Positions 14,884 to 34,224 of a stretch of 34,904 bases of DNA are shown in pieces. The stretch's first letter is position 1. Every line of letters starts with the position of its first letter. The notes below the pieces were generated by a model. It was not told where the DNA came from. It worked only from the letters and a program-made list of their open reading frames with translations, and searched no databases. The position numbers were made by a program, and so were the translations under genes. The stretch lies in the NCBI GenBank assembly GCA_944389445.1, contig CALXMJ010000083.1:1-34904 (forward strand), read 5' to 3'. The stretch comes from an uncultured Victivallales bacterium. GTDB taxonomy: Bacteria > Verrucomicrobiota > Lentisphaeria > Victivallales > UBA1829.

Positions 14884-14933
14884 TTATTCTCTGAATGTCT
14901 GAGCTTTATAAAACCAGAAACGAGTATAAAATT

Positions 14934-17231: not shown

Positions 17232-18558
17232 TTTCAAACTCGTTCTTCCAAGAGGACGACAGAAGAATTTCAGCAGGGAAACAACCGGAATCCGTTTGAA
17301 TTTCCAGATGATACGGCCCGTAAAATCCACGGAAATATTCCATTCCTTTTTCGGTATCATATTCCAGAATGCCGCTCGTATTCCATTCGTCGCGGATCAG
17401 ATGCTTCAGAACGGAAAAGACCGGTTTTTCACTCAGTTCCGCATCGTTGTTCAGAAGACCGCCGAACGCTTTGTTTTCGTTGTAGATCGGTTCATCGGGA
17501 TTTTCCGGCAGCTGGGCTGTATTGTCGACGAGGTTCCAGTAGACAATTCCGTTGAGAGCTGGGTGCGAAAACCAGAGCCGATACAGCCGTTCCGCCATTT
17601 TCGCCTGAAAATCGAACCGATCCGGACCGATCATCTCGTACGCCGTCAGCGTAATCTCTGAAATGTTAATGGGAATTCCGAGTCCAGCATACAGGTCCAG
17701 CATCCGGAATTGATTGAGTGCGTTGAGCTTGTATTCGCTCCATTTGAGCATGTCCGGAAATGCGGCGCACATCAGGTGGAACTGGAGTCCGAGCCCGTCC
17801 ACCTTCCGGCCGCTGCGGAGCAGGTGCCGGACAAGCATGAACAGCGGTGTATATTCTTTATTGTATCCTTCCCAGCAGTTGAAATCGTTATAGTGAAGCA
17901 CGGCGGATTCGGGAAAATAGCGTTTCGCAAGATCAAAACCGAATTCCACCTGGCGGTACGGCAGTTCCCGGATGTCGTTTCTCCAGAGACTGAGTCCCTC
18001 GTTGACGACATCCCAGAGCGGAATCCGTTCCCCGTACCGCTCCGCGATCCGGCGAATTCGCCGCTCCCATTTGAGTTTGAGTCCGGCATCGGCCGTGAGC
18101 CAGGACGGAAGATTGCACTGCCAGAGCAGCGGATGCCCTTTGGGTGTCAAATGTGCGGATTCAGCCCATTCCAGGAGTTCGTCCACGGCGGGACGGCGGA
18201 AAAATTTCGGAGAATCTTTTGCAAACCGCTCCTTTCCCGGTTCCGGTTCCAGACCATCCCAGTAAAACGGCACAACAACTGTGTTGAAAAGCTCCTTGAA
18301 TTTCCGCTCGTACTCCTCATTTTTTCTTTCGGTGTCAAACTGCCGGTACATAAAACCGTTGCAGCCGAATTTGAATTCGTGTCCGGTCTGACGGAATCGG
18401 ACAGTCGCTTTCGAAACGGCTGATCCGTCCTGGTGTTTGAGAATCAGATGCGCCTGTCCTTTGCGGTTCAGCTCGGTTCCATGCTCGATTCGGGCTTCCA
18501 CTTCCGGATTTTCGCGAAGCAGCGAACGGCTGACCGCTTGAATAAATTCATTTTCCAT
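17215..18558 (-). CDS. GH10 family glycoside hydrolase (xylanase-like), no signal peptide
   Basis: KGHPLLW, WDVVNE (acid/base), YND, DGLGLQFH, INISE (nucleophile); GAGGAGG RBS before the ATG at 18558. Confidence 0.88.
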   Translation of the reverse strand: MENEFIQAVSRSLLRENPEVEARIEHGTELNRKGQAHLILKHQDGSAVSKATVRFRQTGHEFKFGCNGFMYRQFDTERKNEEYERKFKELFNTVVVPFYWDGLEPEPGKERFAKDSPKFFRRPAVDELLEWAESAHLTPKGHPLLWQCNLPSWLTADAGLKLKWERRIRRIAERYGERIPLWDVVNEGLSLWRNDIRELPYRQVEFGFDLAKRYFPESAVLHYNDFNCWEGYNKEYTPLFMLVRHLLRSGRKVDGLGLQFHLMCAAFPDMLKWSEYKLNALNQFRMLDLYAGLGIPINISEITLTAYEMIGPDRFDFQAKMAERLYRLWFSHPALNGIVYWNLVDNTAQLPENPDEPIYNENKAFGGLLNNDAELSEKPVFSVLKHLIRDEWNTSGILEYDTEKGMEYFRGFYGPYHLEIQTDSGCFPAEILLSSSWKNEFEITLPE

Positions 18559-18604
18559 GAAGAATCCTCCTCTTGATTGGACAGGGAACAATATATCTGC
18601 TGTC

Positions 18605-18698
18605 GCGGGGAAAACAAAGAGGTGTTCAGCGTGTTAAAGCACTTTCCCCGCTTTTCCCGGCTTCCGCATCTTGTATCTTCCCTGTTTTTCAATATAAT
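18605..18698. promoter_or_regulatory. Divergent control region: 9-bp inverted repeat, imperfect palindrome and putative promoter
   Basis: GCGGGGAAA (18605-18613) and TTTCCCCGC (18643-18651) enclose GTGTTAAAGCAC (18631-18642). TTGTAT-16 nt-TATAAT lies at 18671-18698, upstream of the GntR gene. Confidence 0.4.
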
Positions 18699-18722
18699 TA
18701 ATAGCAGCAGAAGGAGACGATC

Positions 18723-19757
18723 ATGGGGTACAAAAATACAAATGAGTTCATGCGGATCCGCGGAGTGATTCTTTCCTCCATAGCGAATTCAAACCGGACG
18801 GAAATCCGGATACCATCCCTTCGGAAGCTTGCCGAACTTTACCGGGTATCGCCTCCGACTGCAATGCGGGCGATCCACTCTCTGCTCGAAGACGGCTATA
18901 TTGTCCCGCTGAAAGGCGGCGGTTACCGCTCCCTTTCCCAGATGCGAAGTTCCATGAAAATTTTCGGGATGATCAACAGCTTCGGCAAACAAATTTACGA
19001 TATTCACTGTTTCTGGCTTCTGAACGCGGCTCTCGGGATCGAACTGACCGGACGGGGACCCGAATTCTGCACAAAGGATCTCTATCTTGAAACCCAAACC
19101 GATCTTCGCCGCGCCATCTTTGAACATGGTCTTGCGGGATTGATCTGTTCCGGTGTAACAGCGGAAATCGTGGATGAAATCGTCCGGCTCCAGAAGGAAA
19201 CGCCGATCCCGGCGGTTGCATTCTACACCTCCACGCGGAAAATCACGGCGGCTGCGCCGCTCGCTGAGGATTTCTATGGACTTTTCCGTCAGCTTCTGCG
19301 GGAAAAGCGCACGAGCTTTCTGGTTCTCCTTTCGGAACACCATCCGTTTTATCGGGAAATCGCCGAAGCCATTGAGAAAACGCGTCTCCAGAACGGTGTC
19401 AGTCTGACACGCATTTCCTGTGCGGAAGAGGAGGCGCTGTTTCAACTCCGGACTCTCTACAGAACGACTCCCTCCTTTGACGCGATTCTGTTTTTCTCCC
19501 TTATGCCGGGAACCTATGAATTTCTGGCAAAACGGGAAAATCCCGATCAGTGCCGTTTTGTTCTGGATCAGTTTTCCCTTTATGAAAGCCTCCGCTTTAC
19601 AGGTTATGTCTACTCCATTGATCTGAAAAAAACAGCAGGAAAGATCATCGGGAATCTTCTGGAACAGACCAGAGGAAACGAAAACAAACACTTCTTTCGA
19701 ACGGAATTTTCAATTGTTCAATATGAAAATGGACATGTTCTCAAACCACTCACATGA
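18723..19757 (+). CDS. GntR-family regulator with divergent (periplasmic-binding-protein-like) effector domain
   Basis: AAGGAG RBS; wHTH IPSLRKLAELYRVSPPTAMRAIHSLLEDGYI...GGG. Confidence 0.85.
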   Translation: MGYKNTNEFMRIRGVILSSIANSNRTEIRIPSLRKLAELYRVSPPTAMRAIHSLLEDGYIVPLKGGGYRSLSQMRSSMKIFGMINSFGKQIYDIHCFWLLNAALGIELTGRGPEFCTKDLYLETQTDLRRAIFEHGLAGLICSGVTAEIVDEIVRLQKETPIPAVAFYTSTRKITAAAPLAEDFYGLFRQLLREKRTSFLVLLSEHHPFYREIAEAIEKTRLQNGVSLTRISCAEEEALFQLRTLYRTTPSFDAILFFSLMPGTYEFLAKRENPDQCRFVLDQFSLYESLRFTGYVYSIDLKKTAGKIIGNLLEQTRGNENKHFFRTEFSIVQYENGHVLKPLT

Positions 19758-19772
19758 AAGGATTGCACAACT

Positions 19773-22700
19773 ATGACAATGAGAGTCGCTCTGCTGACAA
19801 GCTGTCTATTCGCGCCCGCCCTTCTCTTCGGACAGATTCTGTTTGAAGATTCCTTTCAGGATGCGGATACGCTGAACAACAGAAAACAATGGCCTCCCTA
19901 CCGGGAAGGCGCGGAAATCCTCCGCATGGAGGATGGAAAATTTGCACTTCATCTCTCACCGAAACCGGTGAAACCGGGATGCAGGGCCATGGTCAGCCGG
20001 CAGTTCGATCTGAACAGCGTCCGTGGCAAACGGCTGACTGTTACCGCGGATGTCAAATGGGACATCAAGCTGCCGTTCAGCAAATGGATGGGATCGCGTT
20101 TCATGCTCTGCATCACCGGTTCCGACAAGAAAACGTCCTATGTCAGTGCATCCATTCCGCCGGGGAAATCCGACTGGAAACCCGTCGAATTTTCCGCACA
20201 GATTCCGGATGATGCCCAGAGAGTCATGCTGTTTCTCGGAATCCAGGATGCTCCCGGCGATCTATATGTGAGAAATTTGAAAGTCCGTTCCGGCGACCTT
20301 TTTCTGGACCTCTCCTCCGCGGCAAACATGACCTATCAGGATCAACAGGCCGGCGACGGCAAAGGAGGCTGGTCCGATCAGGGACCCGACAACGATGCCT
20401 CCGGATTCAATTTCCGGCAGACGACTTTCGCCAATGTTCCCTTCAACCCGCTTGATCCGGGAGCAAAAAAACGAAACACCGTCCTGACGTTTGCATCCCC
20501 GAATTTCCCGAAAGGGCTGGAAAAGGCGGAAATTTCCCTTTCCGGCACCGGAACGAATGCGGAATATCTTTATCTTCTGCACACATGCTCCTGGGGCGGA
20601 ACCAAAGGACCGGCAGGATTCATCTCAATCTCCGGCGACAGCGGAAAAATGCAGAAAATCACCGTTCAGGACAGCCGGGACGTCAGCAACTGGTGGTTCC
20701 CGAAACAGGTGGAAAACGGTGCGATCGGCTGCATCTGGAGCAATGTCTCAGGCGGAAATGTCGGATTGTATGTTACGAAATACAAGTTGGATTCCTCGCT
20801 TGGAAAGATTCGAAAGATCACATTGGAAAGCGCTCATGCCGCGCCCATCTGGATCGTAGTCGGCGCCACGCTTTCCTCCCGGGACTATCCATTCCCCAAA
20901 ACAGAAAGCACTCATATCAAGGCGGACCGGGTCTGGAAGGCGGTTCCTGTCGATACGCAGACGCAGGGAATCCGGAAAGGATCGGCGCTGGATCTCTCCC
21001 GGATTCTGCCGCTGGAGAAAGTCGGAGTTTACGGACGTGTCGTGGTCGCTCCGGACGGACATTTCACCTTTGAAAAACGTCCGGATAAACGGATCCGCTT
21101 CATGGCAGCCACCATTGACTTCTCCCTCCTCTGGGAAAAAAATCCCGATCTGGCCGGTGCTGATGATGCGGAAATCAAACGGAGAATTCGGGAATTCGCC
21201 GAAGAGATCCGCAGAAACGGATACAACATGGTCCGTCTTCATTTCTTCAATACCGCGATGATGGGAAGCGCCAGACAGGATCTGGAATTCGATCCCGTCT
21301 TCTTCGACCGATTCGATTATATGGTCCACTCCTTCAAGGAGAATGGAATTTATCTCAACTGGGATGTCTGGACCAGCGCCCCCGGTTTTCAGGCGGGCAA
21401 TCACTGGGCAAACCGTGTCGGGGATAAAAGACATTATTTCTACTATCTCTATGTGGATCCGAAGGTCCGGAACATGTGGAAGGAAGGAGTAAGGAAATTC
21501 CTGAATCGGAAGAATCCGTATACGGGAACAACACTTGCCGAAGATCCGGTGCTCGCCATTACCATCGCCGCAAACGAGCAGGACGGAATGCTCCGCGGCT
21601 GGCGCGACACCTCCGAACTTCTGCCGGAATGGAAAGCCTTCCTCCGGAAACGCTACAGCTCAATCGACGCCCTGAAGAAAGCATGGGGAAAACGGGCGGC
21701 CGCCCTCCGGGATTTCGACTCAATCACTCCTTACCGGAGTGCCGATTTTGCCACACCGGATCAGTATGGACGCGATATTACCGAATTTATCATGGAAAAG
21801 GAAAACGCTCTTGTCGATTTTTATCGGAAATCGCTTGAGGAAGCCGGATACAAGGGACTCTTCAGCCAGTGGAACATGGGACAGGAACTGTTCCGGAATC
21901 TGGAGCGTCAGAAAGTGGATGTCGTGACCATCAACGGCTATCACGCCCACCCGTCTGCATATACCAGTCCGGGATCGACAATCAGCCAGGCAAGTTCGAT
22001 TTCGCAGATTGCCGCCTGCATCCGGAATCTGAATGCCACAAAGCTCTATCGGAAACCGCTGGTGCTTACGGAATACGGCCATGTCTTCTGGAACAAATAC
22101 CGCTATGAACAGGGATTTGTCACGGGAGCCTATTCGGCCTTCCAGAATCATGACGGAATCACCGGATTCTGCAATCAGGTCCGTTCAGCACAGAAAATCA
22201 AAAATCCCAAGCAGATGTGGATCAGTCCATTTACAGGATTTGCATTCGATCCGGTGGCAAAATCGCAGGAATTCCTGACCGCTCTGATGTATCGGCGCGG
22301 GGATGTGACCCCGGCAAAAAATATGGTGCGGATCGCCGTTTCCGGCAAGAAAATCATGAAGGCTGGAGAGTGGATGGATGCGGTTCACAGCGGACAGACG
22401 CGTCTCTCTCTGGTTACAGGATTCGCTGTGGACTGCGAATCAAATCTGCCCGTCAGTCCAAACGAGCTGATTCTCCCGCTCAGCGGGAGGACTCAGCTCA
22501 ATGTTCAGGAGAAGTTCATTGAAACAAAGGAAAGTGAGGTCAACGCCTTCGACTTTGATTCAACCATCCGGATGCTGAAACAGAAAAAACAGCTGCCGGA
22601 ATCCAACCGCACCTCGGCGGAAAAAACTCAGTATGAAAGTGCAAGCGGAGAACTGTTCCTGGATCAGCACAAACGCTTCATGTCCGTTGACACACCGCGC

Positions 22701-23126
22701 CTTCAGGGAATTTGCGGAGAAGCGGGAACAAAAGCAAAACTTTCCAATCTGGAAATCCGGCAGATGAGTCCGCGTGGCAACCTTTCGCTTGCCAGTGTGG
22801 ATGGAATGAAGGATTTGCAGCAGGCGAAGCGTCTGGTCGTGGTGTTTGCGACCAATGCGCTCAACAGCGATATGCAGTTCCGTGATCTGGAAATGCGGGT
22901 TCTGAATCGGATCGGCACGCTTCCGGTTCTGGTGGAAACCGGTTCCTTCTCGCTGACCTTCCGTAATGTCAATGCGAAGAAGATGAAAGGATATGCTCTT
23001 GCCATGGATGGCTCCCGCATCGCGGAAATTCCGCTGAGACATTCCGGGAACACTGTTGAGCTGACCCTGAAATCCACAGCGTTCCCGCAGGGGCCGGCCG
23101 TCTATTTTGAAGTGGTCGCTGAATAA
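19773..23126 (+). CDS. Secreted multidomain glycoside hydrolase (CBM-like beta-sandwiches plus clan GH-A barrel, GH5/GH42-like)
   Basis: Signal peptide; [18 protein letters not shown]......NE (acid/base), [29 protein letters not shown] (nucleophile). Confidence 0.8.
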
Positions 23127-23144
23127 ATATAAGGAGTCCGGAAA

Positions 23145-23231
23145 ATGAAACCATGGAATCCGCTTCTCCTCTCTGCAGCTCGTTCTTTCGCCGTAGAAAA
23201 TGCGGAAAAAATCGGGAAAACGGATCCATGA
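23145..23231 (+). CDS. Putative 28-aa small ORF or truncated signal-peptide gene
   Basis: Strong AAGGAG RBS at 23131-23136, then [28 protein letters not shown]. The stop overlaps an ATG (23228) that is in frame with the prepilin-like gene. Confidence 0.35.
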
Positions 23232-23293
23232 AAAAATGGAATGAAATAACACTCCGGAACACAGACAGAAACCACGAAAGGAGAACTGGATAC

Positions 23294-23995
23294 ATGCAGA
23301 AACGGATTTTCACACTTCTGGAACTGCTCATTGTTGTGGCTGTGATCGCCATCCTTGCCGGACTGCTGCTGCCTGCTCTGAACAAGGCACGGGAAAGCGC
23401 AATCGCAATCAAATGCACGGAAAGTATGAAACAGCTTGGACTGGCATATCATCAGTATGCACAGAGCTGTGACGACTGGACTTTGAGTTATGAAAATCCA
23501 AGATGGTATATCAACGAGTTCTTTCTGGATATTCTGAATGTCAAAGTCAGAGGACCGAGCGGCTGGAATCTGGAATACTGGGACAAGAGTTTCATCTGCT
23601 CCAATGCAACCCGCTGCGGAACCAATGCGGCAATCTACAAATCCCTGTCGCCGCTTTACCGGTCCGTCTGCAATGCCTATGGACTGAATGTTTCCGGAAC
23701 GGAAGGGCCCTCCTGGACCAATTATAAACTGACCAAAGTCAGAAATTCCTCAGCCAAAGTCGCTTTTTCCGAGACATCCGCAGGAGGCCTGATTCCCTCC
23801 TGGAGCCGTGATCCGGCAGAGAAATGGTGGCTGCTTGGAAACGGTCAGCTGACAGATACCGATCAGTACATGGCCTATCGCCATAGAGAAAACACAGCGG
23901 CAAATACTCTTTTTTTCGACGGTCATGTTGCAGCAATTCCTTATTCCGTTTTCATGCAGAGTCAATTCTCTTACCACCTGACGCCGTATCAGTAA
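23294..23995 (+). CDS. Prepilin-type N-terminal cleavage/methylation domain protein with H-X9-DG-type C-terminus (DUF1559-like)
   Basis: AAAGGAG RBS; [34 protein letters not shown]...C...MKQLGLA; C-terminal [18 protein letters not shown]. Confidence 0.9.
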
Positions 23996-24007
23996 TCCCG
24001 TGTCTTG

Positions 24008-24037
24008 CCCCGGAAATGTGGACTTTCATTTCCGGGG
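24008..24037 (+). terminator. Strong intergenic hairpin (terminator or mRNA stabiliser)
   Basis: CCCCGGAAATG-tggacttt-CATTTCCGGGG, a perfect 11-bp stem with no U-tract. Confidence 0.6.
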
Positions 24038-24073
24038 GGATTCAACAAACCGTCAATGCATAAGGATGATGCT

Positions 24074-25252
24074 ATGCTGACATTTCAGAAAAACGAAGAC
24101 AGCAACTTCGCCGCGGAAGAAAGTTCCGTTCAAGATGGATACTGCCGCATTGCGTTTACCCCGTCGCCGCACGATGGAATTGCAAAATTGTGGTTTCACT
24201 GGGTTGTCCGGAATGAATCTTCCGAGCCGCTCCCTCCGCAGACCCGAATCATTTTGAAGAACCTGCAAGGGGTGCTCGGCGCTGAAGACGGCTCCTTTCA
24301 GCCGGTTATCCGGACGGACAAATCCGACTGGGAACGTCTGCACAGCGGCGTTCGAAGTGTTCTGCCGGATGGCCGCACTCAACTGGAATGGATCGTGAAG
24401 ACGCCGCAACGGAACGGATTTCTGGAGTGTGCGCTCTGTTATCCGTACTGGATGCCGGAGCTGGAACGAATGTGTCAGGAGACGGGCGGATACTGGGTCG
24501 CGGACGAGATCGGCGTGACCAGGGAAGAGCGGAGAATTCTCCGGCTCTCCAACTGCTATGGCAATCCGGAGCGCCCGGAACGCGGACTCTATCTTCTTGC
24601 GCGGCAGCACGCCGGGGAAACACCGGGGTCCTGGGTGCTGGACGGCCTCCTGAGGCGCCTTGCGGAACGAAAGGCTCCTTTCCCGGTCTGGTGCATCCCA
24701 TTTGCCGATCCGGACGGCATTGCAAACGGTGATTACGGAAAGGATTCCTTTCCGCAGGATATGAACCGTTCCTGGGGGCCTTTTGAATTTATGCGTCATG
24801 AGACGAAAGTGATCGGTACCGATCTTCGGGAATGGCGCAGACGCATTCTTCCCGGAGAGTCGCTGGTTCTGGATTTTCATGCTCCTGGAGCGGATGAAAC
24901 CGGAGTTTATGCTTACGTCTCCGACGAATCGCGGAAACATCCGTTCCGATGGAAAATCCATGATCTTCTCCCGCGGCTCGACAGAGCAATCGCCCCCTGT
25001 TCGCAGACGCCATTTCTCAGGACAGGCGGTTACAAGAAATATTCCGCCTGGGGAGAGTTTGCAAATCTTTCGGAGTTCTGTCTCTGGACTCTTCCGCTTC
25101 TTTTTGCTTCGATTGAGATCAGTTACTGGAAGGCGGGAGGAAAAGTCCTGACCAGAAAGGAATATCAAAATATCGGAAGCCGGATCACAGATGAGATCAT
25201 TTCTATTTTTTCGGAATCATTACAGTCAGGAGTCAGCAAAAAATGCGTTTGA
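24074..25252 (+). CDS. M14-family zinc carboxypeptidase-like protein
   Basis: ARQHAGETPGSW (HxxE), PDG...K...DMNRSW, LDFH; TAAGGA RBS before the ATG at 24074. Confidence 0.85.
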   Translation: MLTFQKNEDSNFAAEESSVQDGYCRIAFTPSPHDGIAKLWFHWVVRNESSEPLPPQTRIILKNLQGVLGAEDGSFQPVIRTDKSDWERLHSGVRSVLPDGRTQLEWIVKTPQRNGFLECALCYPYWMPELERMCQETGGYWVADEIGVTREERRILRLSNCYGNPERPERGLYLLARQHAGETPGSWVLDGLLRRLAERKAPFPVWCIPFADPDGIANGDYGKDSFPQDMNRSWGPFEFMRHETKVIGTDLREWRRRILPGESLVLDFHAPGADETGVYAYVSDESRKHPFRWKIHDLLPRLDRAIAPCSQTPFLRTGGYKKYSAWGEFANLSEFCLWTLPLLFASIEISYWKAGGKVLTRKEYQNIGSRITDEIISIFSESLQSGVSKKCV

Positions 25253-26904
25253 AAACCCGTCTCTGCAGTTCTCTGGCAAAGATTTTTCCTCAGGAGGAAC
25301 CGCAGGGAGTTCCATACCATTCCGCCTCGGCGCTGAAGGGAGAACGATTCTCGTTCCAGTTTGTGTTTCATACAAAAAAGCAGTGGACCCCTTTCCGAGT
25401 GGAGGTGGACTCCGCTCTGCGTAAATATGTCCGGGTTCGGAAAGTGGAGCTTGTCCCGGTACCAAGCCTATCCCCCTTTCTTCCGGAGGAATGGGCGGAA
25501 GAGGATCTTATTTCCCATCAGCCCGGTTTGTATCCGGATCTTCTGGAAGAACTTCCGGATCCCTATTATCCGCTTCCGGACGCCTGGAATGCTCTGTGGA
25601 TTACCGTGGAACTGCCGGAGACGATTCAGGGCGGCAGATATCCAATCCGGCTTCGTCTCCTGGAATCGGGAGCCGATGCAGGAGAACAGGTTTTGATTCT
25701 GGATGTCATTGATTTAGTTCTGCCACCGCAGAAACTGATCTGCACCAGCTGGGTCCATGCGGACTGTCTTGCCGTTTATTATGATACCCCGATGTGGAGC
25801 GGAAAACACTGGAGCATTCTGGAAAAGTTTATCCGTTCGGCAGTCCGGCATGGCATCAACATGCTCTACACACCGCTGCTGACGCCTCCGCTGGATACCG
25901 CACCCGGAGAGGAACGGCCAACGACTCAGCTGATCGGGATCCGGAAAAAGAAAGGGGACTACTTTTTTGATTTTTCCAGACTGGATCGCTGGATCAACAT
26001 GGCGCAGAAGTGCGGAATGAAATACTTTGAGTTTTCGCATCTGTTTTCTCAGTGGGGGGCGAGGTATGCACCGAAGGTCGTGGCGGATGTCAATGGAACC
26101 GAACAACGGATTTTCGGGTGGGAGACGTCTGGAACTGATCCGGAATACCGAAAATTCCTTGCGCAGCTTCTCCCGCAACTGACGAATTTTCTGATCCGGA
26201 AAAATCTGCGGAAGCAATGTTATTTCCACTGTTCCGACGAACCGAATCGAAAACAAGTGGAATCCTATCGGGAGGCTTTTCTGTTCCTGCATAAATTTTT
26301 GAAGGAGTTTCATTTGTTTGATGCGATGTCCGATACCGGAGTTGCCCGACGAATCCCGGAAGTCATTCCGATTCCTGCAGAAGAACATATCAGGACTTTT
26401 GCATTGCAGAAGCCGGACCAGCTCTGGACCTATTACTCCTGTACTTCGCAAAAGAAAGTCAGCAATCGTTTTCTGCACATGCCGTCCTCCCGGAACCGGA
26501 TTCTCGGAGCACTTCTTTACCGGTACGGAATTTCCGGATTTCTGAACTGGGGTTTCAATTTTTATTATTCGGGTCTTTCCCGTTTTCCGCTTGATCCCTT
26601 TCGCCGAACAGATGCTGGGGGAGCATTCCCGCCGGGAGATGCTTTCCTGGTTTATCCGGGAAGAAATGGTGCGCCTTTGGATTCCATTCATTATGAAGTT
26701 TTTGCAGAGGCTTTGCAGGATTTCCGTGTTCTTTCACTACTGGAGAGATATCTCCATAGAGACAAAATTATGGATATGCTGGACCACCATTCTCCCGGAG
26801 GACGAATGACAATGACAGAGTATCCGCGAGGAGAAAATGCCGTATTATCTCTTCGAAAGCGAATAAACAAATGCCTTGCAGGGAGTGTAAAAGAGACCAG
26901 CTAA
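25243..26904 (+). CDS. DUF4091-domain putative glycoside hydrolase (GH123-like)
   Basis: LYPDLL, GINMLYTP, SDEP, GFLNWGFNF, GDAFLVYPG....DSI.YE...EALQD.R.L. Confidence 0.8.
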   Translation: MRLKTRLCSSLAKIFPQEEPQGVPYHSASALKGERFSFQFVFHTKKQWTPFRVEVDSALRKYVRVRKVELVPVPSLSPFLPEEWAEEDLISHQPGLYPDLLEELPDPYYPLPDAWNALWITVELPETIQGGRYPIRLRLLESGADAGEQVLILDVIDLVLPPQKLICTSWVHADCLAVYYDTPMWSGKHWSILEKFIRSAVRHGINMLYTPLLTPPLDTAPGEERPTTQLIGIRKKKGDYFFDFSRLDRWINMAQKCGMKYFEFSHLFSQWGARYAPKVVADVNGTEQRIFGWETSGTDPEYRKFLAQLLPQLTNFLIRKNLRKQCYFHCSDEPNRKQVESYREAFLFLHKFLKEFHLFDAMSDTGVARRIPEVIPIPAEEHIRTFALQKPDQLWTYYSCTSQKKVSNRFLHMPSSRNRILGALLYRYGISGFLNWGFNFYYSGLSRFPLDPFRRTDAGGAFPPGDAFLVYPGRNGAPLDSIHYEVFAEALQDFRVLSLLERYLHRDKIMDMLDHHSPGGRMTMTEYPRGENAVLSLRKRINKCLAGSVKETS

Positions 26905-26919
26905 GCCTGCTGGTCTTTT
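26894..26919 (+). terminator. Rho-independent terminator overlapping the stop codon
   Basis: AGACCAGC-taagcct-GCTGGTCT followed by TTT. Confidence 0.65.
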
Positions 26920-27110
26920 GCTTCGCAGGACGGAGATCTCCGCTTCGCGGCTCTGCGGAGAGAAGGCGCACCGAATACAGCAGATCAGCCAGGACAACTG
27001 AGGGATGGAAATGTCCCTCATAAGTCGGGATTCCTTGAGGAATATGGTTTCGATGGAAAAGGGATTTATGCGGATTATGAATTCCTGAGAGGACGACATC
27101 TGGAATATGA

Positions 27111-27263
27111 ATTGTGGAGGTCGTCCACTCCTGGTTCAATCGATTCCGGAAATTGCTTGTCAGATATGAAAAGACAAATCGGGCATATGAATCATTGCTT
27201 CAATTGGCCGTTAGTATTATCATTTTTGGAAAAAACAGGCATTATTCAGGGATATATTCTTAA
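27111..27263 (+). mobile_element. IS5-family transposase C-terminal remnant with right end
   Basis: IVEVVHSWFNRFRKLLVRYEKTNRAYESLLQLAVSII (IS5-type VE..HSW.NRFR.L.VRYEK pattern); ends GGATATATTCT followed by TAA. Confidence 0.8.
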
Positions 27264-27495
27264 TACAGTATCTATTTTCTATTTTGTCAGATGGAATCCT
27301 ATCTTTACACTCTTATTGACGCATCATGCTGACTGTCAATTTATTATTTGGAAGAAACGTGTCACATGTCTTTTTTATTGAAAAACAGAATCATCTGTTC
27401 AACACATGCATCCCGCCTTCCCAATGAAGATGCACCCCCTTAATCAGTTGAAATTAATATCAGAAAGAAATTTCATAAAAATGAAAAATACCCTC

Positions 27496-27524
27496 TTGAC
27501 AAAAAAATGATTTTATGCTATAAT
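27496..27524 (+). promoter_or_regulatory. Consensus sigma70 promoter of the lacI-family gene
   Basis: TTGACA, 17 nt, TATAAT with an extended TG. Confidence 0.85.
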
Positions 27525-27530
27525 TAAAAA

Positions 27531-27548
27531 TGCTGAACCGATTCAGCA
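27531..27548. promoter_or_regulatory. LacI-type operator
   Basis: TGCTGAACCGATTCAGCA: near-perfect palindrome with central CG at the predicted +1. Confidence 0.75.
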
Positions 27549-27578
27549 AAATCTTGATTTTACGCAGTACTTTTCTGG

Positions 27579-28577
27579 ATGGGCATGAAAATGAAAGTGA
27601 CATTGAAAGATATTGCTGAAAAAGCCGGAGTCTCCAAGGCTCTGGTTTCAATGTATTTGAATCATGATCCCCGTGCCCGTCTGACCAGAGAGAAACAAAA
27701 TAAGATAGATGAACTGGTCGCAAAAATGGGATATCGCCCCTCCCATTTAGCAAGAGTTTTGCGGCAAGGACGCACCAAAACCATCGGAATGGTTCTTGGC
27801 GGCTTGAACGACCCTTTTTTCCATCATTTGGCAGAACTTGTTTTGAAATACAGCAGTGAACAGAATTATCAAATTCTGATTGCTCTGACGGAATGGGATC
27901 CGGAAAAAGAAAAACAGGCCCTTCAGCTTCTTCTTGACCGTGGCGTCGATGCAGTGATCCTCACAGCGGATACTATGAATGACCCGGAAGCGTTTACACA
28001 GATCATCGGAGACCATCCAGGAATTCTTTTGCGCAGGATACACCCGGCTTACAGCTCCGTCACAGGAAACATGAGGGATATTTTCCACGAGACCATCAGC
28101 CATTTCCGATCTCTCGGGATTTCAGAAATTTCTTTGATTGAACATGATAAACAAGTTCAAGCTCTTTTTCAGGAAGTCGCGGAAAAAGAAAATTTCAGAA
28201 TTCGGATTCCAGAAATCCGATGCCGGGCCGATGACAACGCCTCGCTAGGGGAATTTGCCCTGAATGCATGCCGGGAAACCGAGGGACTTTATATTGCATC
28301 CTGCTGGGTCGCCAAACAGTTTCTGCAAAAACTCCCAGAGCATCCGGAACTTCATCCGAAAATAGTGACGAACTATAATTTCCCGGAAGATTTTATTGGA
28401 GATTCCTCTATTACAGGAATTATAGACAATCATTTTTCAGATTTTGTCCGTCTGCTGACCGATACCATTATTGATCTTGCAGAACATCCTCAGAAACCAG
28501 TTATCAAGACAATGAATTTTCATTTTTATTCCCGTCAGGATTTTCTAGCCACGCATCCGGAGGCAGTCGGAAAATGA
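27579..28577 (+). CDS. LacI-family transcriptional regulator
   Basis: VTLKDIAEKAGVSKALVSMYLN...MGYRPSHLARVLRQGRTKTIG. True start may be 27585 or 27591. Confidence 0.95.
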   Translation: MGMKMKVTLKDIAEKAGVSKALVSMYLNHDPRARLTREKQNKIDELVAKMGYRPSHLARVLRQGRTKTIGMVLGGLNDPFFHHLAELVLKYSSEQNYQILIALTEWDPEKEKQALQLLLDRGVDAVILTADTMNDPEAFTQIIGDHPGILLRRIHPAYSSVTGNMRDIFHETISHFRSLGISEISLIEHDKQVQALFQEVAEKENFRIRIPEIRCRADDNASLGEFALNACRETEGLYIASCWVAKQFLQKLPEHPELHPKIVTNYNFPEDFIGDSSITGIIDNHFSDFVRLLTDTIIDLAEHPQKPVIKTMNFHFYSRQDFLATHPEAVGK

Positions 28578-28610
28578 AAGCCGGAAACTGCAGAAAGGAA
28601 TTCTTGAAAT

Positions 28611-29336
28611 ATGAAAAAGAATTTTTCTCTTATTGAATTATTAATTGTAATTTCCATTCTTTCCATTTTAGTCAGCCTGCTTCTTCCATCCCTGTTCAAG
28701 GCGAGGATGTCCGCACGTCAGGTCCAGTGTCTCTCCAACATGAAGCAACTTGCCACGGCATTTCAGTCTTATCTTGGAGATTACAACGACTGCTATCCGC
28801 TGATAGCCCCGGTCTCCAATTGGAGTATGGAAGGTGCAGGTAATGCAGCACGCTGGTACAATACAGGGTTCTACAGTCTTCATCTGATTGCCACCTACAT
28901 TGTGCCCGGAGCTGCACAGTGTTTTAAAAATACGGTCTGGGAACCGGTTTCAAAGGTTTTTGTGTGTCCGGGGAATCAGCTGAATCCAAACAATACGCAG
29001 GCAAATTACACTGCCAATTACTTTGTTTTCGGCAATCCCAATGAAGTGCCCTCCGTTTTCTCCTCCGGGAAGATGAAATATCCAACAAAAATTTTCACAA
29101 CCGCGGAAGGCCTTTCTCACACATTTGATTACAACACGGCCTCTCTGAATGTTTTTCCGGCTGCGGATTTTGAAAATCACACGACCAGCGGAGTCTATCA
29201 ATGGCACTTCCGCCATGAAAAAAGAATCAACTTCATATTTGGAGACGGCCACGCAGCCTCACATGCACCACCATTTTTCGGAATCGGGTCCTGGACCCAG
29301 CGGAAGAGCGGTCCTTTTTTCTGGTACAACTACTGA
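28611..29336 (+). CDS. Prepilin-type N-terminal cleavage/methylation domain protein with H-X9-DG C-terminus (DUF1559-like)
   Basis: MKKNFSLIELLIVISILSILVSLLLPSLFKAR..A..VQCLSNMKQL; FVCP; FRH-EKRINFIFG-DGHA. Confidence 0.9.
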   Translation: MKKNFSLIELLIVISILSILVSLLLPSLFKARMSARQVQCLSNMKQLATAFQSYLGDYNDCYPLIAPVSNWSMEGAGNAARWYNTGFYSLHLIATYIVPGAAQCFKNTVWEPVSKVFVCPGNQLNPNNTQANYTANYFVFGNPNEVPSVFSSGKMKYPTKIFTTAEGLSHTFDYNTASLNVFPAADFENHTTSGVYQWHFRHEKRINFIFGDGHAASHAPPFFGIGSWTQRKSGPFFWYNY

Positions 29337-29380: not shown

Positions 29381-30043
29381 ATGAAACAAATGCTCATTCT
29401 CAGCATCCTGAGCGGGCTTATAGTGGGTGCTCATGCCGATCATGTCATTCTCGGCAAAGGAAAATTCGCACATTTTAATCATTATGGGAATGCGGAGATA
29501 CAAAAGAATAAAGATTCTCTCTCGATTCGATTCGGAGGATGCAATTCCGACCGGGGCGGAGCTCTTCAGATTTTCCGAAATGCACTGGCTGCACCGGCAA
29601 ACGATGACAGCAATGCGCTGACAATCACAATGAAAGGAGACGGTTCCAATGGACGTTTTGTCATTCTCTGCTCCGACACTTCCGGGAAATCATGGTGCTG
29701 GAACGGAGAGCGCTGGATGGATTCCGCACAGATTTCCGTTCTGGAGGACACCTGGCACAAAAAAGTCTTTCCTGCAAAAGAATTTGTCCAAATCACTCCG
29801 ACTCCCCAAAAAGGAGAAAAAAGCGAACTGAATTTGCAGAAAATTCAAAATCTTCAACTGGCAATCGGAGCGAATCTGACCAATCCGGGAAAGAGACTTC
29901 TTTCCATGGAAGTTTCTGAAATTGCAATGGAAAAAGATCCCCGTCCATCGCGAATCGAAGCGGAAGATAATAATAAATCGAAAAAGAACGACGGGAGCCC
30001 CATAAAAAAAAAGCAGTCCGCCAGCCGGAACGTTCTGAACTAG
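29381..30043 (+). CDS. Secreted CBM11/CIA30-like carbohydrate-binding domain; probable N-terminal part of a frameshifted CBM-GH2 gene
   Basis: Signal peptide MKQMLILSILSGLIVGAHA; LTITMKGDGS..F.I...D..G..W...W....F...F...LNLQKIQNL; ends in a polar linker containing an A9 run. Confidence 0.7.
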   Translation: MKQMLILSILSGLIVGAHADHVILGKGKFAHFNHYGNAEIQKNKDSLSIRFGGCNSDRGGALQIFRNALAAPANDDSNALTITMKGDGSNGRFVILCSDTSGKSWCWNGERWMDSAQISVLEDTWHKKVFPAKEFVQITPTPQKGEKSELNLQKIQNLQLAIGANLTNPGKRLLSMEVSEIAMEKDPRPSRIEAEDNNKSKKNDGSPIKKKQSASRNVLN

Positions 30044-30056
30044 TTCCGGCGGATTG
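29993..30056 (+). other. Candidate -1 recoding cassette (SD-like, A_AAA_AAG, hairpin)
   Basis: GGGAG at 29993-29997; in-phase A AAA AAG at 30007-30013; stem GCCGGAAC/GTTCCGGC at 30024-30050. Confidence 0.5.
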
Positions 30057-30072
30057 GTGCTCTCCCCCATGG

Positions 30073-33000
30073 GTGGACTGGAATTTACACAACCATTTCC
30101 GGGAAAACCTGGCCTGTCGTGAACGGATTTCATTGAACAATTACTGGATGTTCCAACCACGGGAAGAGTCGGCGGAAGAAAAGATTCTGGCATCTGGCGG
30201 AAAATGGCCTTCTTTTCCAGACCATCCGGAAAAGATGGGGAGCTGGTATCTTTTGAAAGTTCCGGGGCGCTGGGATGCCCGCGGCGCATTTTACATGTAC
30301 GATTTTTCCAGGAAAAAGGTGGATAAAATCGGCGGGCGGACTCGCTCCGCCTATTCCCAAGGCTGGATCCGACGCACATTTTTTGTTCCGGAAACATGGA
30401 AGGATAAGGAGATTTCTCTGGAATTTTCCGGCATAAACCGGGATGCACGGCTGTTTCTCAACGGAAGGCGGGTCTGCGACTTCTCTTTAAGTACAAAAGT
30501 TATGATTTCTCCCTGGCTGGTTTACGGGAAAAAAAATGATCTTACCCTTTTTGTTTCCCTGAAATCCCTTCCGCTTTCTCCTGAACACTCAAGATACAAG
30601 GAATACTGCGGTTTCCGAAGAGGAGATGGAGCGGACTGGTGGTTCAATTGGAATCCCGGACCTGGAATCAGCGGAAATGTCTTTCTCAACGTGCGCCCTC
30701 GAAATGTCAGTCTGGACAATCTGCGGATCGTCACGACAACAAATGACAAAAAAATACTCGCCGCGGCAGAACTCACCAACCGGACAAAACAGACGCAGAT
30801 ATTCCGTCTCGACGGAAGAATTTCCAGACAATCGAAAACGCTCTTTCAGCTACCCGGAGTTACAGTAAAACTGGCACCTGGTTCCACACGATCCATCTCT
30901 TTGAGCGGTATCTGGAAGGATGCCGTGTTCTGGTCACCAGAGCACCCGAATCTGTTTCGCTTTCATCTTTATCTTCGGGATTCCCAAGGGATTCCACAGG
31001 ATGAGCTTTCAACCCGCTTCGGCTTCCGGGACATCAAAATCCAAGGGAGTGATTTCCTGCTGAACGGGAAAAAAATCCATCTGAAATTTCTGAGTTCACA
31101 ACTCAGGATTGCCGAGAAAACCGATGAGGAAATCCGAAAAATTCTACAGGAATTGAAGCGTCTTCATTTCAACGGTCTGCTCTATGAATCTCTGGATGAA
31201 CGGGTTCTGAATCTCTGTGATGAACTTGGCCTGATGGTTTCGCTTCGTCATGTCTTCCCTCCCCTGGTCCGCGGAGGAGATTACCTCCCCGGGGTTCCGA
31301 ATCAAGGAATTCCTTTTGCAGCCTATTTGAGTACAAAATATGCAGATGCCCGAACCGAACTGGAAAGCACAATTTCAGAAGTGGTTCGCAAATTTCGCAA
31401 TCATCCTTCTCTTGTCATCTGGATGCTCAACCCACTTCTCTGCTGGAATCCCGACTGGATCAATCCGAACCGGATTGATGAGGAAACCCGCCAAAGCGAT
31501 GTCGTTCTGGCATCTCTGCGGGAAGAAGCATTTCTCCGTCGGGAAGATCCGACACGGATCGTCATTCAAAGTATGGGTTCCAACACCGGCGCAGTCATTT
31601 CCTGCAATCCGTATCCGACGTTCAGCAACCAGCCGGATGAATGGGCCGACTGGCCGATGCGTTGGGCAGAACACCGTAAAAAACCTCTTTTACTGGAAGA
31701 AGTCGCTCTCCCTTTTGTATTCAATTTTGCCTCATTTCACAGTTCTTCTAAAAAGAGGTTCAATTCCTGGACAGAAATGCGGCAGCTTTTCTATGAGCAT
31801 GCCGCACGCTACTTCGGGGACCCGATATATTCTTCAGCGGACGCATCCATGAGTGATCTGGCCTGGCATACCCTTTCCAACGGAATCCAGAAAAAACCGG
31901 ACGGCTCTTCCTTCTACCCGTTAAATCCCGCGGCGGAAGCCGCACATGCCTACTGGCTTCGACGTTGCGGCCTGGCCTGGCGGCTGTATGACATTTCCGG
32001 AATCTGGCCGTTTCAATCGCATCAACTCTACTATTCCAATGGGAAAGGAGCAAAGCGCGATTACGCATATAAGGATATCACGACCCCAGGAATCAAAAAT
32101 GACTATGGCATTCCGGAAACATTTACCCATGTCAATCGAATTTTCGCTGAACAGAAACGCATTCAGCAACCGTTTCTTGCCTGGATTGCCGGTCGTCCGG
32201 AACGTTTCACCTCTCTGGAACACAACTATTACTCTGGAGAAGAGCTGATCAAACAGCTGATATTCTCCAATCATCATGAGAATCCGGTAAAGATCCATGC
32301 GGAATATCGGATCACCGAAGGCGATCGAATTCTCTTTTCCTCGCAATGGTCCGGAGAAATCCAGTCGGGGGAGAACTTCCGTCTTCCTTTCCGCTGGCGT
32401 CTTCCAACGTTTTCCAAGCGGAACCGCCTCTCGCTGGAGCTGACAGCCCGAAGCGGTGGAGAGACCAGCCGAGACACATTCCAGTTTACTGTTTTTCCCC
32501 GGGAAAAAACGATTTCCACCTCCGACGTAACTCTTTATGATGAATACGGGACAACAGAACGTCTGCTGCAGAAAATGGAAATTCCATATCGAAAGTTCAC
32601 CACATCTTCGGCCATGACGGGAACACTTGTGGTCGGCAACAACTCTTTTACAGAACAATTTCTCTCGCGCATTCCCGATCTGAAGCAGAAGCTGCAAGCT
32701 GGATTGACACTTCTGGTCATGAATCAGAATAAGGATACGGTACTGGGTCCGTATTTGGAAGAACGGCGTGCGCGGCATGTTTTTTTGAAAGATCCGCAGC
32801 ATCCCATTCTGCAGGGAATTCAGCCAGAGGATCTCTTGCACTGGCGTGGAGAAAGCGATGTCGCCGAAGCCTATCCGGAGAGCAGAACAGCTGTTCACAG
32901 AGACCGCTTTATGCACTGGGGACAGGAAGGAACCGTTTCCTCCTATGTACTGGATAAACCTTACAGTGGACGATTCCGGATCCTCTTGGACTGCGATGCG

Positions 33001-34224
33001 GATTTGTCTCGAACAGTACTGATGGAATATCTGCTCGGGAAAGGCCGACTGATCTTCTGTCAGCTGGACCTGGATTCCCGTTTTGGAAAGGATCCCGTGG
33101 CAACCCGGCTGACGGAACGACTGCTCGCCTATGCGGCAAAACCGGAACAGACGGTGCGGAAAAAAGTCGTTTTCATCGGCCAGGAAATGTTGAAAGGAAC
33201 CCTGGAAAGACTTGGCTTCCGATTCCAGAAAATTCCATGGAAGAAGGCCGATGTTCTGATCTCGGCGGATTCGACTCTTGCTCCGGAAGAACTGAATCGT
33301 TTTGTATCCGGCGGAGGAACTCTTCTTTTCCTGGGGAACTCGAACAGACAGTATTGCGCATTCGGGATTCCTGTTCCGGAAAGCACCCTCTGTCGTCTGG
33401 CGGCATATGATCCATCGCCTTACTTGCGCGGGATCGGGAATTCCGACTTCTATCTGAATCCGGCAATGAGTCCTGCACTCTTTCCGGGAAGATACGCATT
33501 TCTCTGCAAAAAAACGGGAAAAGGTACGGTATCCGCATTCTCTCTGCTTCCCGAGCAGTTCCAGGAATACGCTTCCAGGATCAAAATCAAAAGAGTTTTA
33601 TCAGTGCTTCTGACCAATCTTGGAGCAGAAGGAGTGGATGAAATCTCATTCCATACAGACAAAGAATCCGGAATGCTGACGGGACGGAAGGTGGCGTTTC
33701 TTACGGATCCGGAGGAACAGGGGCTTCGAAAAGGCTACCACCTTCCGGAATTTCCTGATTCTACCTGGAAACATATCAAACTGGGATTTGACTGGGAAGG
33801 TCAGGGAATCAACATGAACAATCCCAGATACAAAAATGCCTCTGCTCCGTATGATGGCGATGCCTGGTACCGTGTCCGCGTTTTTATTCCAGGTTCATGG
33901 AAAGGGAAGCCGATCGTGTTCCATGCGGACAGCATTGATGATCTGGACTGGGTCTGGCTTAACGGAATCCCTGTCGGTCATACGGGAATGGAAAATCCGG
34001 AGTACTGGGCGGTTCCGCGAAATTACAGAATACCGGAAAAAGCTATTCGGTTTGGGAAAGAAAATCTTCTTGCCATACGAGTACGCGATCTAAGAGGAAA
34101 TGGAGGTGTTTTGAATGCCGTTTATCTTGCTCCGGAAGGAGCGCCTCCTGCAAAAGACGCCTTGTGGGAGCGTCCACGACGAGAAATCCGGGATTTCGAT
34201 CCCAACTTCTGGAGACAATGGTGA
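30073..34224 (+). CDS. Large GH2-like multidomain glycoside hydrolase (frame open from 29977; probably joined to 29381-30043)
   Basis: RERISLNNYW.F, WSPEHPNL, RFGFR.I....F.LNG, CDELGL, NHPS.VIW, DPTR, KPLLLEE; C-terminal sugar-binding sandwich YDGDAWYR...IDD.D.VWLNG. No RBS or signal peptide at the GTG. Confidence 0.85.
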   Translation: MDWNLHNHFRENLACRERISLNNYWMFQPREESAEEKILASGGKWPSFPDHPEKMGSWYLLKVPGRWDARGAFYMYDFSRKKVDKIGGRTRSAYSQGWIRRTFFVPETWKDKEISLEFSGINRDARLFLNGRRVCDFSLSTKVMISPWLVYGKKNDLTLFVSLKSLPLSPEHSRYKEYCGFRRGDGADWWFNWNPGPGISGNVFLNVRPRNVSLDNLRIVTTTNDKKILAAAELTNRTKQTQIFRLDGRISRQSKTLFQLPGVTVKLAPGSTRSISLSGIWKDAVFWSPEHPNLFRFHLYLRDSQGIPQDELSTRFGFRDIKIQGSDFLLNGKKIHLKFLSSQLRIAEKTDEEIRKILQELKRLHFNGLLYESLDERVLNLCDELGLMVSLRHVFPPLVRGGDYLPGVPNQGIPFAAYLSTKYADARTELESTISEVVRKFRNHPSLVIWMLNPLLCWNPDWINPNRIDEETRQSDVVLASLREEAFLRREDPTRIVIQSMGSNTGAVISCNPYPTFSNQPDEWADWPMRWAEHRKKPLLLEEVALPFVFNFASFHSSSKKRFNSWTEMRQLFYEHAARYFGDPIYSSADASMSDLAWHTLSNGIQKKPDGSSFYPLNPAAEAAHAYWLRRCGLAWRLYDISGIWPFQSHQLYYSNGKGAKRDYAYKDITTPGIKNDYGIPETFTHVNRIFAEQKRIQQPFLAWIAGRPERFTSLEHNYYSGEELIKQLIFSNHHENPVKIHAEYRITEGDRILFSSQWSGEIQSGENFRLPFRWRLPTFSKRNRLSLELTARSGGETSRDTFQFTVFPREKTISTSDVTLYDEYGTTERLLQKMEIPYRKFTTSSAMTGTLVVGNNSFTEQFLSRIPDLKQKLQAGLTLLVMNQNKDTVLGPYLEERRARHVFLKDPQHPILQGIQPEDLLHWRGESDVAEAYPESRTAVHRDRFMHWGQEGTVSSYVLDKPYSGRFRILLDCDADLSRTVLMEYLLGKGRLIFCQLDLDSRFGKDPVATRLTERLLAYAAKPEQTVRKKVVFIGQEMLKGTLERLGFRFQKIPWKKADVLISADSTLAPEELNRFVSGGGTLLFLGNSNRQYCAFGIPVPESTLCRLAAYDPSPYLRGIGNSDFYLNPAMSPALFPGRYAFLCKKTGKGTVSAFSLLPEQFQEYASRIKIKRVLSVLLTNLGAEGVDEISFHTDKESGMLTGRKVAFLTDPEEQGLRKGYHLPEFPDSTWKHIKLGFDWEGQGINMNNPRYKNASAPYDGDAWYRVRVFIPGSWKGKPIVFHADSIDDLDWVWLNGIPVGHTGMENPEYWAVPRNYRIPEKAIRFGKENLLAIRVRDLRGNGGVLNAVYLAPEGAPPAKDALWERPRREIRDFDPNFWRQW

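Follow-up and report, generated by a model that had tools for sequence, protein, structure and literature searches.

The window analysed here is a stretch of 34,904 nucleotides (nt) from an uncultured Victivallales bacterium (contig CALXMJ010000083.1 of assembly GCA_944389445.1, our genome G000). Close to its right end, two overlapping frames on the plus strand encode a predicted carbohydrate-binding module (CBM) and a glycoside hydrolase (GH) of the GH2 type. The first open reading frame (ORF), ORF1 (29381..30043, +), specifies 220 amino acids (aa): a signal-peptide-like N-terminus, a CBM11/CIA30-like beta-sandwich, a polar linker and the tripeptide K-K-K at a run of adenines, after which a 9-residue out-of-frame tail is closed by TAG. 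The GH2-type frame (29977..34224, +) is open for 1415 codons in the -1 frame relative to ORF1 and ends with the stop codon at 34222-34224. The frames change over at an A9 run (30004..30012, +), followed by a G at 30013, where ORF1 reads ATA AAA AAA AAG CAG ... TAG and the -1 frame reads ...HKKKAVRQPERSELVPADWCSPPWVDWNL... across the junction. The break is a direct observation. A shift at the run would join 211 residues of ORF1 to 1403 of the GH2 frame, and the predicted product of 1614 aa matches relatives in which both parts are fused in a single frame (1609-1694 aa).

The A9 run is the proposed slip site, for RNA polymerase, for the ribosome or for both. Its distal part and the following G form the heptamer A_AAA_AAG (30007..30013, +), which is in phase with ORF1. 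A Shine-Dalgarno (SD)-like GGGAG (29993..29997, +) lies 6 nt ahead of the A-run and 9 nt ahead of the heptamer, and a hairpin assigned by folding (30014..30056, +) overlaps the ORF1 stop. The hairpin has an 8-bp GC-rich stem, GCCGGAAC/GTTCCGGC (30024-30031 and 30043-30050), which starts 10 nt past the heptamer, and an outer stem, CAGTCC/GGATTG (30014-30019 and 30051-30056), which starts 0 nt past it. An earlier note on this DNA had described the A9, the phased heptamer, the GGGAG, the 3' hairpin and the open -1 frame, and had placed the break in an interdomain linker; all coordinates are correct, and the linker position agrees with our analysis. A pattern scan between ORF1 and the GH2 frame gave no promoter- or terminator-like site, the site counts being near the shuffle expectation.

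The match of ORF1 to the Pfam family CIA30 (20.7 bits) falls below the cut-off of 24. Its AlphaFold model has a pLDDT of 77 overall and above 85 for residues 31-190, and the top Foldseek matches in the PDB are CBM11 structures (1v0a, E 2.6e-6, TM 0.50/0.62, the latter target-normalised). The model suggests a CBM11-like beta-sandwich for which carbohydrate binding is predicted; the signal peptide was assigned by eye. The downstream frame comprises a GH2 N-terminal domain, an immunoglobulin-like domain, a TIM-barrel, a long C-terminal extension and a second sugar-binding-like domain. Its Pfam scores are all above the respective cut-offs (PF02837, 53.2 against 28; PF00703, 33.4 against 23; PF02836, 24.3 against 21), and the best solved relatives are GH2 chains (E 3e-16). 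Judged from these domains, the downstream frame encodes a GH2-type protein.

The CBM part was found in 8 of 41 related genomes, all of the same genus. Nine of the 11 loci in this genus that carry both CBM and GH2 have them in a single frame; the split is present only in the window genome and in its 67%-identical ortholog G008:C8. In the protein databases, all four GH2 clusters with at least 67% identity to the window protein (67-100%) measure 1356-1358 aa (P0005, P0006, P0007 and P0008, with 16, 25, 1 and 113 members). The 11 full-length matches at 47% identity or less, one of which (45% identical) is labelled Victivallales by its source, consist of nine fused proteins of 1609-1654 aa and two CBM-less homologs (P0015 and P0016; 1368-1369 aa, 43-44% identity), and a 12th match of 1017 aa spans only 54% of the query. 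Close homologs of the CBM part occur only as split proteins of similar length (P0003, 81% identity, 230 aa; P0004, 68%, 210 aa; two matches among 116 candidates); these two clusters together comprise 26 sequences. No longer, fused close homolog was recovered among 729 candidates in a word-based search, which is weak evidence. In the tree the four split GH2 proteins group as a single clade (support 100/100) within the fused proteins, so that the simplest history is a single origin of the break. By these comparisons ORF1 and the GH2 ORF are one ancestral gene: the proposal of the earlier note that a single gene lies in two frames is supported by the fused distant relatives, and its expectation of a broken frame in orthologs is borne out, the break and the A-run being kept in all close orthologs.

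The conservation of the break is also directly observed in the encoded proteins. When the four ORF1 proteins are aligned, [IV]KK[KS] falls in a single column in all of them, after which they diverge into tails of 9, 20, 0 and 5 residues. The tail of P0003 reads on in the 0 frame just as that of the window does. The end of P0004, VKKK-stop, corresponds to the DNA of G008:C8 plus one A and would fit A9 + G + TAA; for the P0003/P0006 and P0004/P0007 lineages the run lengths are taken from protein tails rather than DNA. When genome contigs were scanned with P0003, the sole matches were G008:C8 and three fused relatives. In JGI/ENA metagenome contigs no relative was found with the query P0001, and alignment A2 recovered 12 loci, one of them a close ortholog, L025. 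We rejected L025 as an independent lineage: it is identical to G008:C8 (= L037) over 5618 nt and represents the same strain, so the two assemblies are not independent. A second apparent break, in the paralog G007:C74 (L023, 966-967, inside the CBM), proved to be an NN gap in the record and not a frameshift. A distant GH2 paralog in the window genome (G000:C384:11412-14651, minus strand, 28% identity) has one in-frame TAG inside the match.

Both halves of the broken gene are, by their codon substitutions, under strong purifying selection. Between the window genome and G008:C8 the ratio of nonsynonymous to synonymous substitution rates (dN/dS) is 0.073 in the CBM part (205 codons) and 0.082 in the GH2 part (1403 codons), at a saturated dS of about 3, and neither part contains a stop. 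The linker is poorly conserved between the two genomes, yet CAT-A(n)-G is retained. The run gains length from ATA, a rare codon for Ile (8% of the Ile codons in the counted ORFs), and the two other KKK tripeptides in ORFs of the window are written AAA AAG AAA. Runs in the fused relatives do not exceed 7, and their linkers lack runs of that length. Codon usage and alignment together make the A-run itself look selected.

The GH2 part has no conserved internal start. The gene caller begins the hydrolase at the ATG at 30148 in the window, which is codon 58 of P0002, and at a GTG 50 codons past the run in G008:C8, where the first ATG, GTG or TTG does not occur before codon 50 after the run. The GTG at 30073, which follows the ORF1 stop by 30 nt, is GTA in G008:C8. 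A segment W-V-[DN]-W ... R-E-R-I-S-L-N-N-Y-W is kept in G008:C8 and in the fused relatives, 5' of the called starts; in the window this conserved N-terminal GH2 segment, PPWVDWNL...RERISLNNYW (30061..30147, +), lies 5' of ATG 30148 and straddles GTG 30073. The CBM-less homologs begin MPL.PAWVDW, i.e., they include the segment, and the alignment of P0002 with solved GH2 chains begins at their N-termini and at its own residues 49-50, inside the segment. Over the 45 codons after the run, the window and G008:C8 share 22 of 45 residues in the GH2 frame, compared with 12/44 and 11/44 in the other frames, which contain stops, and ISLNNYW is preserved through synonymous changes. By eye, no SD motif is visible ahead of GTG 30073 or ATG 30148. 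The GH2 ORF lacks a conserved start and a signal peptide of its own and is under selection; the note had already seen no ribosome-binding site or signal peptide at its GTG. Because the conserved segment extends upstream of the called starts and the start itself is not conserved, translation most likely enters the GH2 frame from ORF1, upstream of usable start codons.

One could nevertheless assume a stable gene fission, in which two genes persist and the hydrolase is started at GTG 30073, at ATG 30148 or by re-initiation. The gene callers give proteins of 1356-1358 aa in all four lineages, natural CBM-less homologs exist, and the ORF1 stop precedes GTG 30073 by only a short spacer. However, neither candidate start is conserved or preceded by a visible SD motif, the called starts come only after the conserved W-V-[DN]-W ... 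ISLNNYW segment, the enzyme part would lose the signal peptide that is present in every fused relative, and the conserved A-run would be left unexplained. We consider fission very unlikely.

The length of the A-run differs among the close relatives, and the lengths 8, 9 and 10 all leave the frame broken. G008:C8 reads ATA AAA AAA AGT ... TGA, an A8 run; its GH2 frame has TAA at the start of the run and needs a shift of +1 (or -2), not -1. Contigs from the sequencing runs that contain the stretch, which are labelled bird or chicken gut metagenomes, repeat the A9 without difference in X1 (DNA) and X18 (RNA library). In X2, 30013 G>A without a gap extends the tract to A10, which again needs -1, the frame being still broken; the substitution is synonymous in ORF1 (AAG to AAA) and replaces Ala by Thr in the GH2 frame. 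The three sequencing runs with bridging contigs (X1, X2 and X18) show no indel at the A-run. In X7 a contig starts inside it (30005) and none bridges 29848-30004, a gap from which nothing was drawn. The shift needed is therefore +1 in one lineage and -1 in the others. The earlier note had named an assembly error in the run as a point that could overturn its reading; the repetition of A9 in independent contigs from other studies makes a simple error of this kind unlikely.

Two observations on these contigs stand apart. In X2 a second contig covers 29711-29943 at about four times the depth (41.7 compared with 9.4-9.9), differs at 20 of 233 positions and stops before the A-run; it comes from a related, more abundant lineage that coexists in the sample. 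At ~30230-30240 the window encodes PEKMGSW, whereas P0005 has PEKKGSW despite its listing as 100% identical, and X2 has 30236 T>A, a common Met/Lys polymorphism.

Differences in run length raise phase variation as an explanation: replication would change the length of the A-run, the enzyme would be ON or OFF in subpopulations, and the assemblies would capture the OFF majority. The homopolymer lies within a gene for a secreted protein, lineages differ in its length (8, 9 and 10), and selection on both halves is expected if ON cells are periodically selected. An intragenic G-tract in pilus genes of Bifidobacterium, shown to act by replication slippage (PMC9187656), calls for caution, and the X7 contig that starts inside the run, with none bridging it, may be counted as a weak point in favour. 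However, an in-frame length was seen nowhere: A9 is exact in the window genome, X1 and X18, X2 differs by a substitution and not by an indel, A8 recurs in two assemblies of one strain, and there is no fused close ortholog among the cluster representatives. Tracts of A8-A10 are also short for a contingency locus. The within-lineage polymorphism including in-frame lengths that would characterise such a locus was not found among the contigs and cluster representatives, which make this a weak test. On balance, phase variation is distinctly unlikely.

The break could also reflect nothing more than a mutational hot spot, with recent loss of the frame in each lineage, or consensus errors, and the enzyme would then be dead or dying. 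Homopolymers are the commonest sites of indels, the window genome is a draft of 456 contigs that is 89.6% complete, and the two different out-of-frame lengths could be independent hits. To place the A-run in context, we turn to the homopolymers of this genome (4.3 Mb, 53% G+C), in which A/T runs are far commoner than base composition predicts: 551 of length 8, 96 of length 9 and 23 of lengths 10-18. Long frames are poor in such runs, and many of the runs are found immediately 5' of a ribosome-binding site and ATG. Runs of at least 8 between two frames of at least 150 codons number 33, and such runs fall between two long frames in 2.4-3.1% of cases compared with 1.3% at random positions. The 32 other candidates look like ordinary gene boundaries or antisense frames, none resembling a broken gene (judged by eye, not by homology); by the same inspection the A-run described here looks like the only one in the genome that marks a broken gene rather than a gene boundary, and the genome is not riddled with homopolymer breaks. 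All four lineages moreover keep stop-free ORFs of 1356-1403 codons with a dN/dS of 0.08 at saturated dS, the split forms are one clade, the window genome and P0003 share the frame relation, and A9 is repeated in independent contigs. Decay or artefact is accordingly a poor explanation, and we give it little credence.

These considerations incline us, with moderate confidence, towards recoding at the A-run, whether ribosomal or transcriptional, as the way in which this sequence would be expressed. The earlier note had proposed the ribosomal form, a dnaX-type -1 frameshift on A_AAA_AAG aided by GGGAG and the hairpin. A heptamer of the X_XXY_YYZ form is present in the phase of ORF1, with GGGAG 9 nt upstream, and 30014-30060 folds to -21.1 kcal/mol compared with a mean of -12.6 for shuffles (z = -3.1; 1 of 200 shuffles as stable). 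In the ortholog G008:C8 a GAGGA nearly coincides in position with GGGAG, the P0003 tail repeats the 0-frame reading of the window, and the VKKK-stop of P0004 would, by inference from the protein, fit a phased A_AAA_AAG. A -1 frameshift on A-AAA-AAT is also reported for an archaeal GH29 fucosidase (PMC8037382). However, the hairpin is not conserved in G008:C8 (z = -0.8), and it is spaced 0 or 10 nt from the heptamer, where about 6 nt would be expected (about 5-8 nt being typical of such signals). The stimulators are therefore shared only in part: an SD-like motif is present in both species, the hairpin is significant in the window genome alone. The direction of the shift is not shared either, since the A8 of G008:C8 needs +1, whereas a shift of -1 is needed in the window genome and in the X2 strain. 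Nor does a heptamer need a run of this length, to which the rare ATA adds.

The decoding capacity of the window genome points the same way. Among its 41 tRNAs found by ARAGORN are one tRNA-Lys(CUU) and two tRNA-Lys(UUU), so AAG is not left to a single tRNA-Lys(UUU), the condition that accounts for the high shiftiness in E. coli. As argued for Thermus, ribosomes slip less readily on AAG when tRNA-Lys(CUU) is present (Atkins et al. 2016, PMC5009743), and by this argument A_AAA_AAG would be less shift-prone here. Upstream of the run there is no sign of a stimulatory hairpin: in both species the preceding 60 nt are no more stably folded than their shuffles. No T-run follows the 3' hairpin, and a terminator scan does not call it. 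Rfam returned four matches (E 0.46-6.7), far below the gathering scores and none of them a frameshift element. The dnaX-type signal as specified in the note is therefore not supported, given the unconserved hairpin, the +1 relation of the A8 ortholog, the tRNA-Lys(CUU) and the lack of an Rfam match above chance; of the signals sought in orthologs, the A-run and the SD-like motif recur in G008:C8 and the 3' hairpin does not. A ribosomal -1 shift on the heptamer, helped by these stimulators, is in our estimate unlikely as the main route. The alternatives that the note had also mentioned, transcriptional slippage and phase variation, fit the facts better.

What favours a shift at the RNA level are the mixed +1 and -1 states, the tRNA-Lys(CUU), the non-conserved hairpin and a run longer than 7. 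A(n) with n > 7 is the class tied to transcriptional realignment, and candidates in dnaX of Chlorobi have 7-10 A's (Antonov et al. 2013, PMC3711429); the A11 run of tssM is reported to give two length variants through RNA-polymerase slippage (PMC4256274). Here, A-runs in the range of ~8-9 or more (A8, A9 and A10, in three lineages or strains) stand at the frame junction, as transcriptional realignment would have it, and run and broken frame are conserved while both ORFs are selected. We tentatively choose RNA-polymerase slippage as the main route, at somewhat less than an even chance. Under this reading the frame would be broken 'on purpose' at the conserved A-run in the linker. Standard decoding would yield a protein of ~220 aa that has a CBM11-like fold and is secreted without the enzyme, and in a fraction of expression events slippage on the A-run would yield the 1614-aa protein made of signal peptide, CBM and GH2. 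RNA polymerase would turn A9 into A10 in the window genome and A8 into A7 or A10 in the sister species. In the window genome, ribosomes slipping on A_AAA_AAG might add to the product, and ribosome sliding on poly-A, a phenomenon known from published work, could contribute as well. The occurrence of slippage, the level (transcription or translation) at which it would take place and the use of both products are what we infer from the pattern. Stated in full, a whole clade of gut Lentisphaerota would keep a secreted CBM-GH2 gene permanently out of frame, and slippage at the RNA level, for which +1 and -1 states of the genomic run are equally tolerable, would co-produce a free binding protein and an enzyme at a ratio set by the run; this is a possibility that we hold with some reserve.

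Several points weigh against RNA-polymerase slippage or narrow its basis. An A8 run is short for efficient slippage by RNA polymerase. Three of the four split lineages also fit a -1 shift on A_AAA_AAG (P0003 and P0004 by their protein tails), and the window genome does have an SD-like motif and a strong hairpin. The A8 state comes from one strain only, L025 and L037 being identical over 5618 nt. The statement that close relatives have no fused form rests on cluster representatives and word-based searches. Run lengths were taken from Logan contigs, which drop minor variants, and the sole RNA-library contig over the run has a plain A9 and could be DNA carry-over. Finally, Antonov et al. 2013 might list such a cluster in their supplementary material.

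Systems in which one gene yields two length variants through poly-A slippage or frameshifting are already known. The gene tssM of Citrobacter rodentium and Yersinia pseudotuberculosis is, as reported, interrupted right after a poly-A run that is conserved in a relative, and it gives a short and a full-length variant (PMC4256274). The run is A11 there and 8-10 here; slippage was shown there by mass spectrometry of cDNA, with both forms needed, whereas here it is proposed from sequence; and tssM belongs to a secretion system, whereas our gene encodes a secreted carbohydrate-active enzyme (CAZyme). In dnaX of Thermus thermophilus, RNA polymerase is described to slip on an A9, a run comparable in length to those found here, and there are two species of tRNA-Lys, as in the window genome; the long product there is, however, the unshifted one (PMC5009743). 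In the dnaX candidates of Chlorobi two ORFs meet at 7-10 A's, the run length varies among orthologs and the long product needs the shift (PMC3711429), as would be the case here. Both dnaX genes belong to another gene family. The dnaX of E. coli resembles the window genome in the phased A_AAA_AAG, the SD-like motif about 10 nt upstream and the 3' stem-loop. It differs in that here the stem is not conserved and is spaced otherwise, one ortholog needs +1 and tRNA-Lys(CUU) is present, and in that the shift yields the long product here and the short one there.

The closest precedent for a CAZyme that we are aware of in the cited literature is the archaeal GH29 fucosidase. In fucA of Saccharolobus solfataricus two overlapping ORFs specify a glycoside hydrolase, which is made as one protein by -1 frameshifting at the A-rich heptamer A-AAA-AAT (PMC8037382). 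It is archaeal and of another GH family, and the break falls within the catalytic protein (81 + 426 aa). In the window the break separates the whole binding module from the enzyme, so that the unshifted product could function alone. In this respect the locus resembles E. coli copA, from which a free N-terminal domain, CopA(Z), and the full multidomain protein are made by one gene; there, the -1 shift makes the short form, here it would make the long form (PMC5009743). In the literature searched, no bacterial CBM-GH gene of this kind came to light, the supplementary tables of the large frameshift surveys lying outside that search.

If the proposal is correct, the gene would be the first bacterial one for a carbohydrate-active enzyme in which a recoding site is conserved, and the unshifted product would be a complete functional module. 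A carbohydrate-active enzyme would then join the short list of bacterial cellular genes in which poly-A slippage gives two length variants. Annotation pipelines would mis-call these genes: the closest orthologs are all filed as a truncated GH2 of ~1357 aa and an orphan hypothetical protein, and the GH2 entries are without the signal peptide, the binding module and the first conserved strand. The natural pair of A9 (-1) and A8 (+1) would allow RNA-polymerase slippage and ribosomal slippage to be told apart. As a functional idea, a free CBM released beside the enzyme might bind or mark the glycan substrate.

The window as a whole is a locus for glycan degradation, in which GH95, GH10, GH123 and GH42-like genes occur together with regulators of the GntR and LacI types and two DUF1559 proteins. 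GH95 lies at 14895-17231 and GH10 at 17215-18591 on the minus strand; GH123 is found at 25243-26904, the LacI regulator at 27579-28577 and the DUF1559/prepilin-type proteins at 23153-23995 and 28611-29336. The GntR-like gene and a GH42-like protein of 1117 aa belong to the same locus (14895-29336 in the window). The LacI gene and the second DUF1559 gene are located directly upstream of ORF1, on the same strand.

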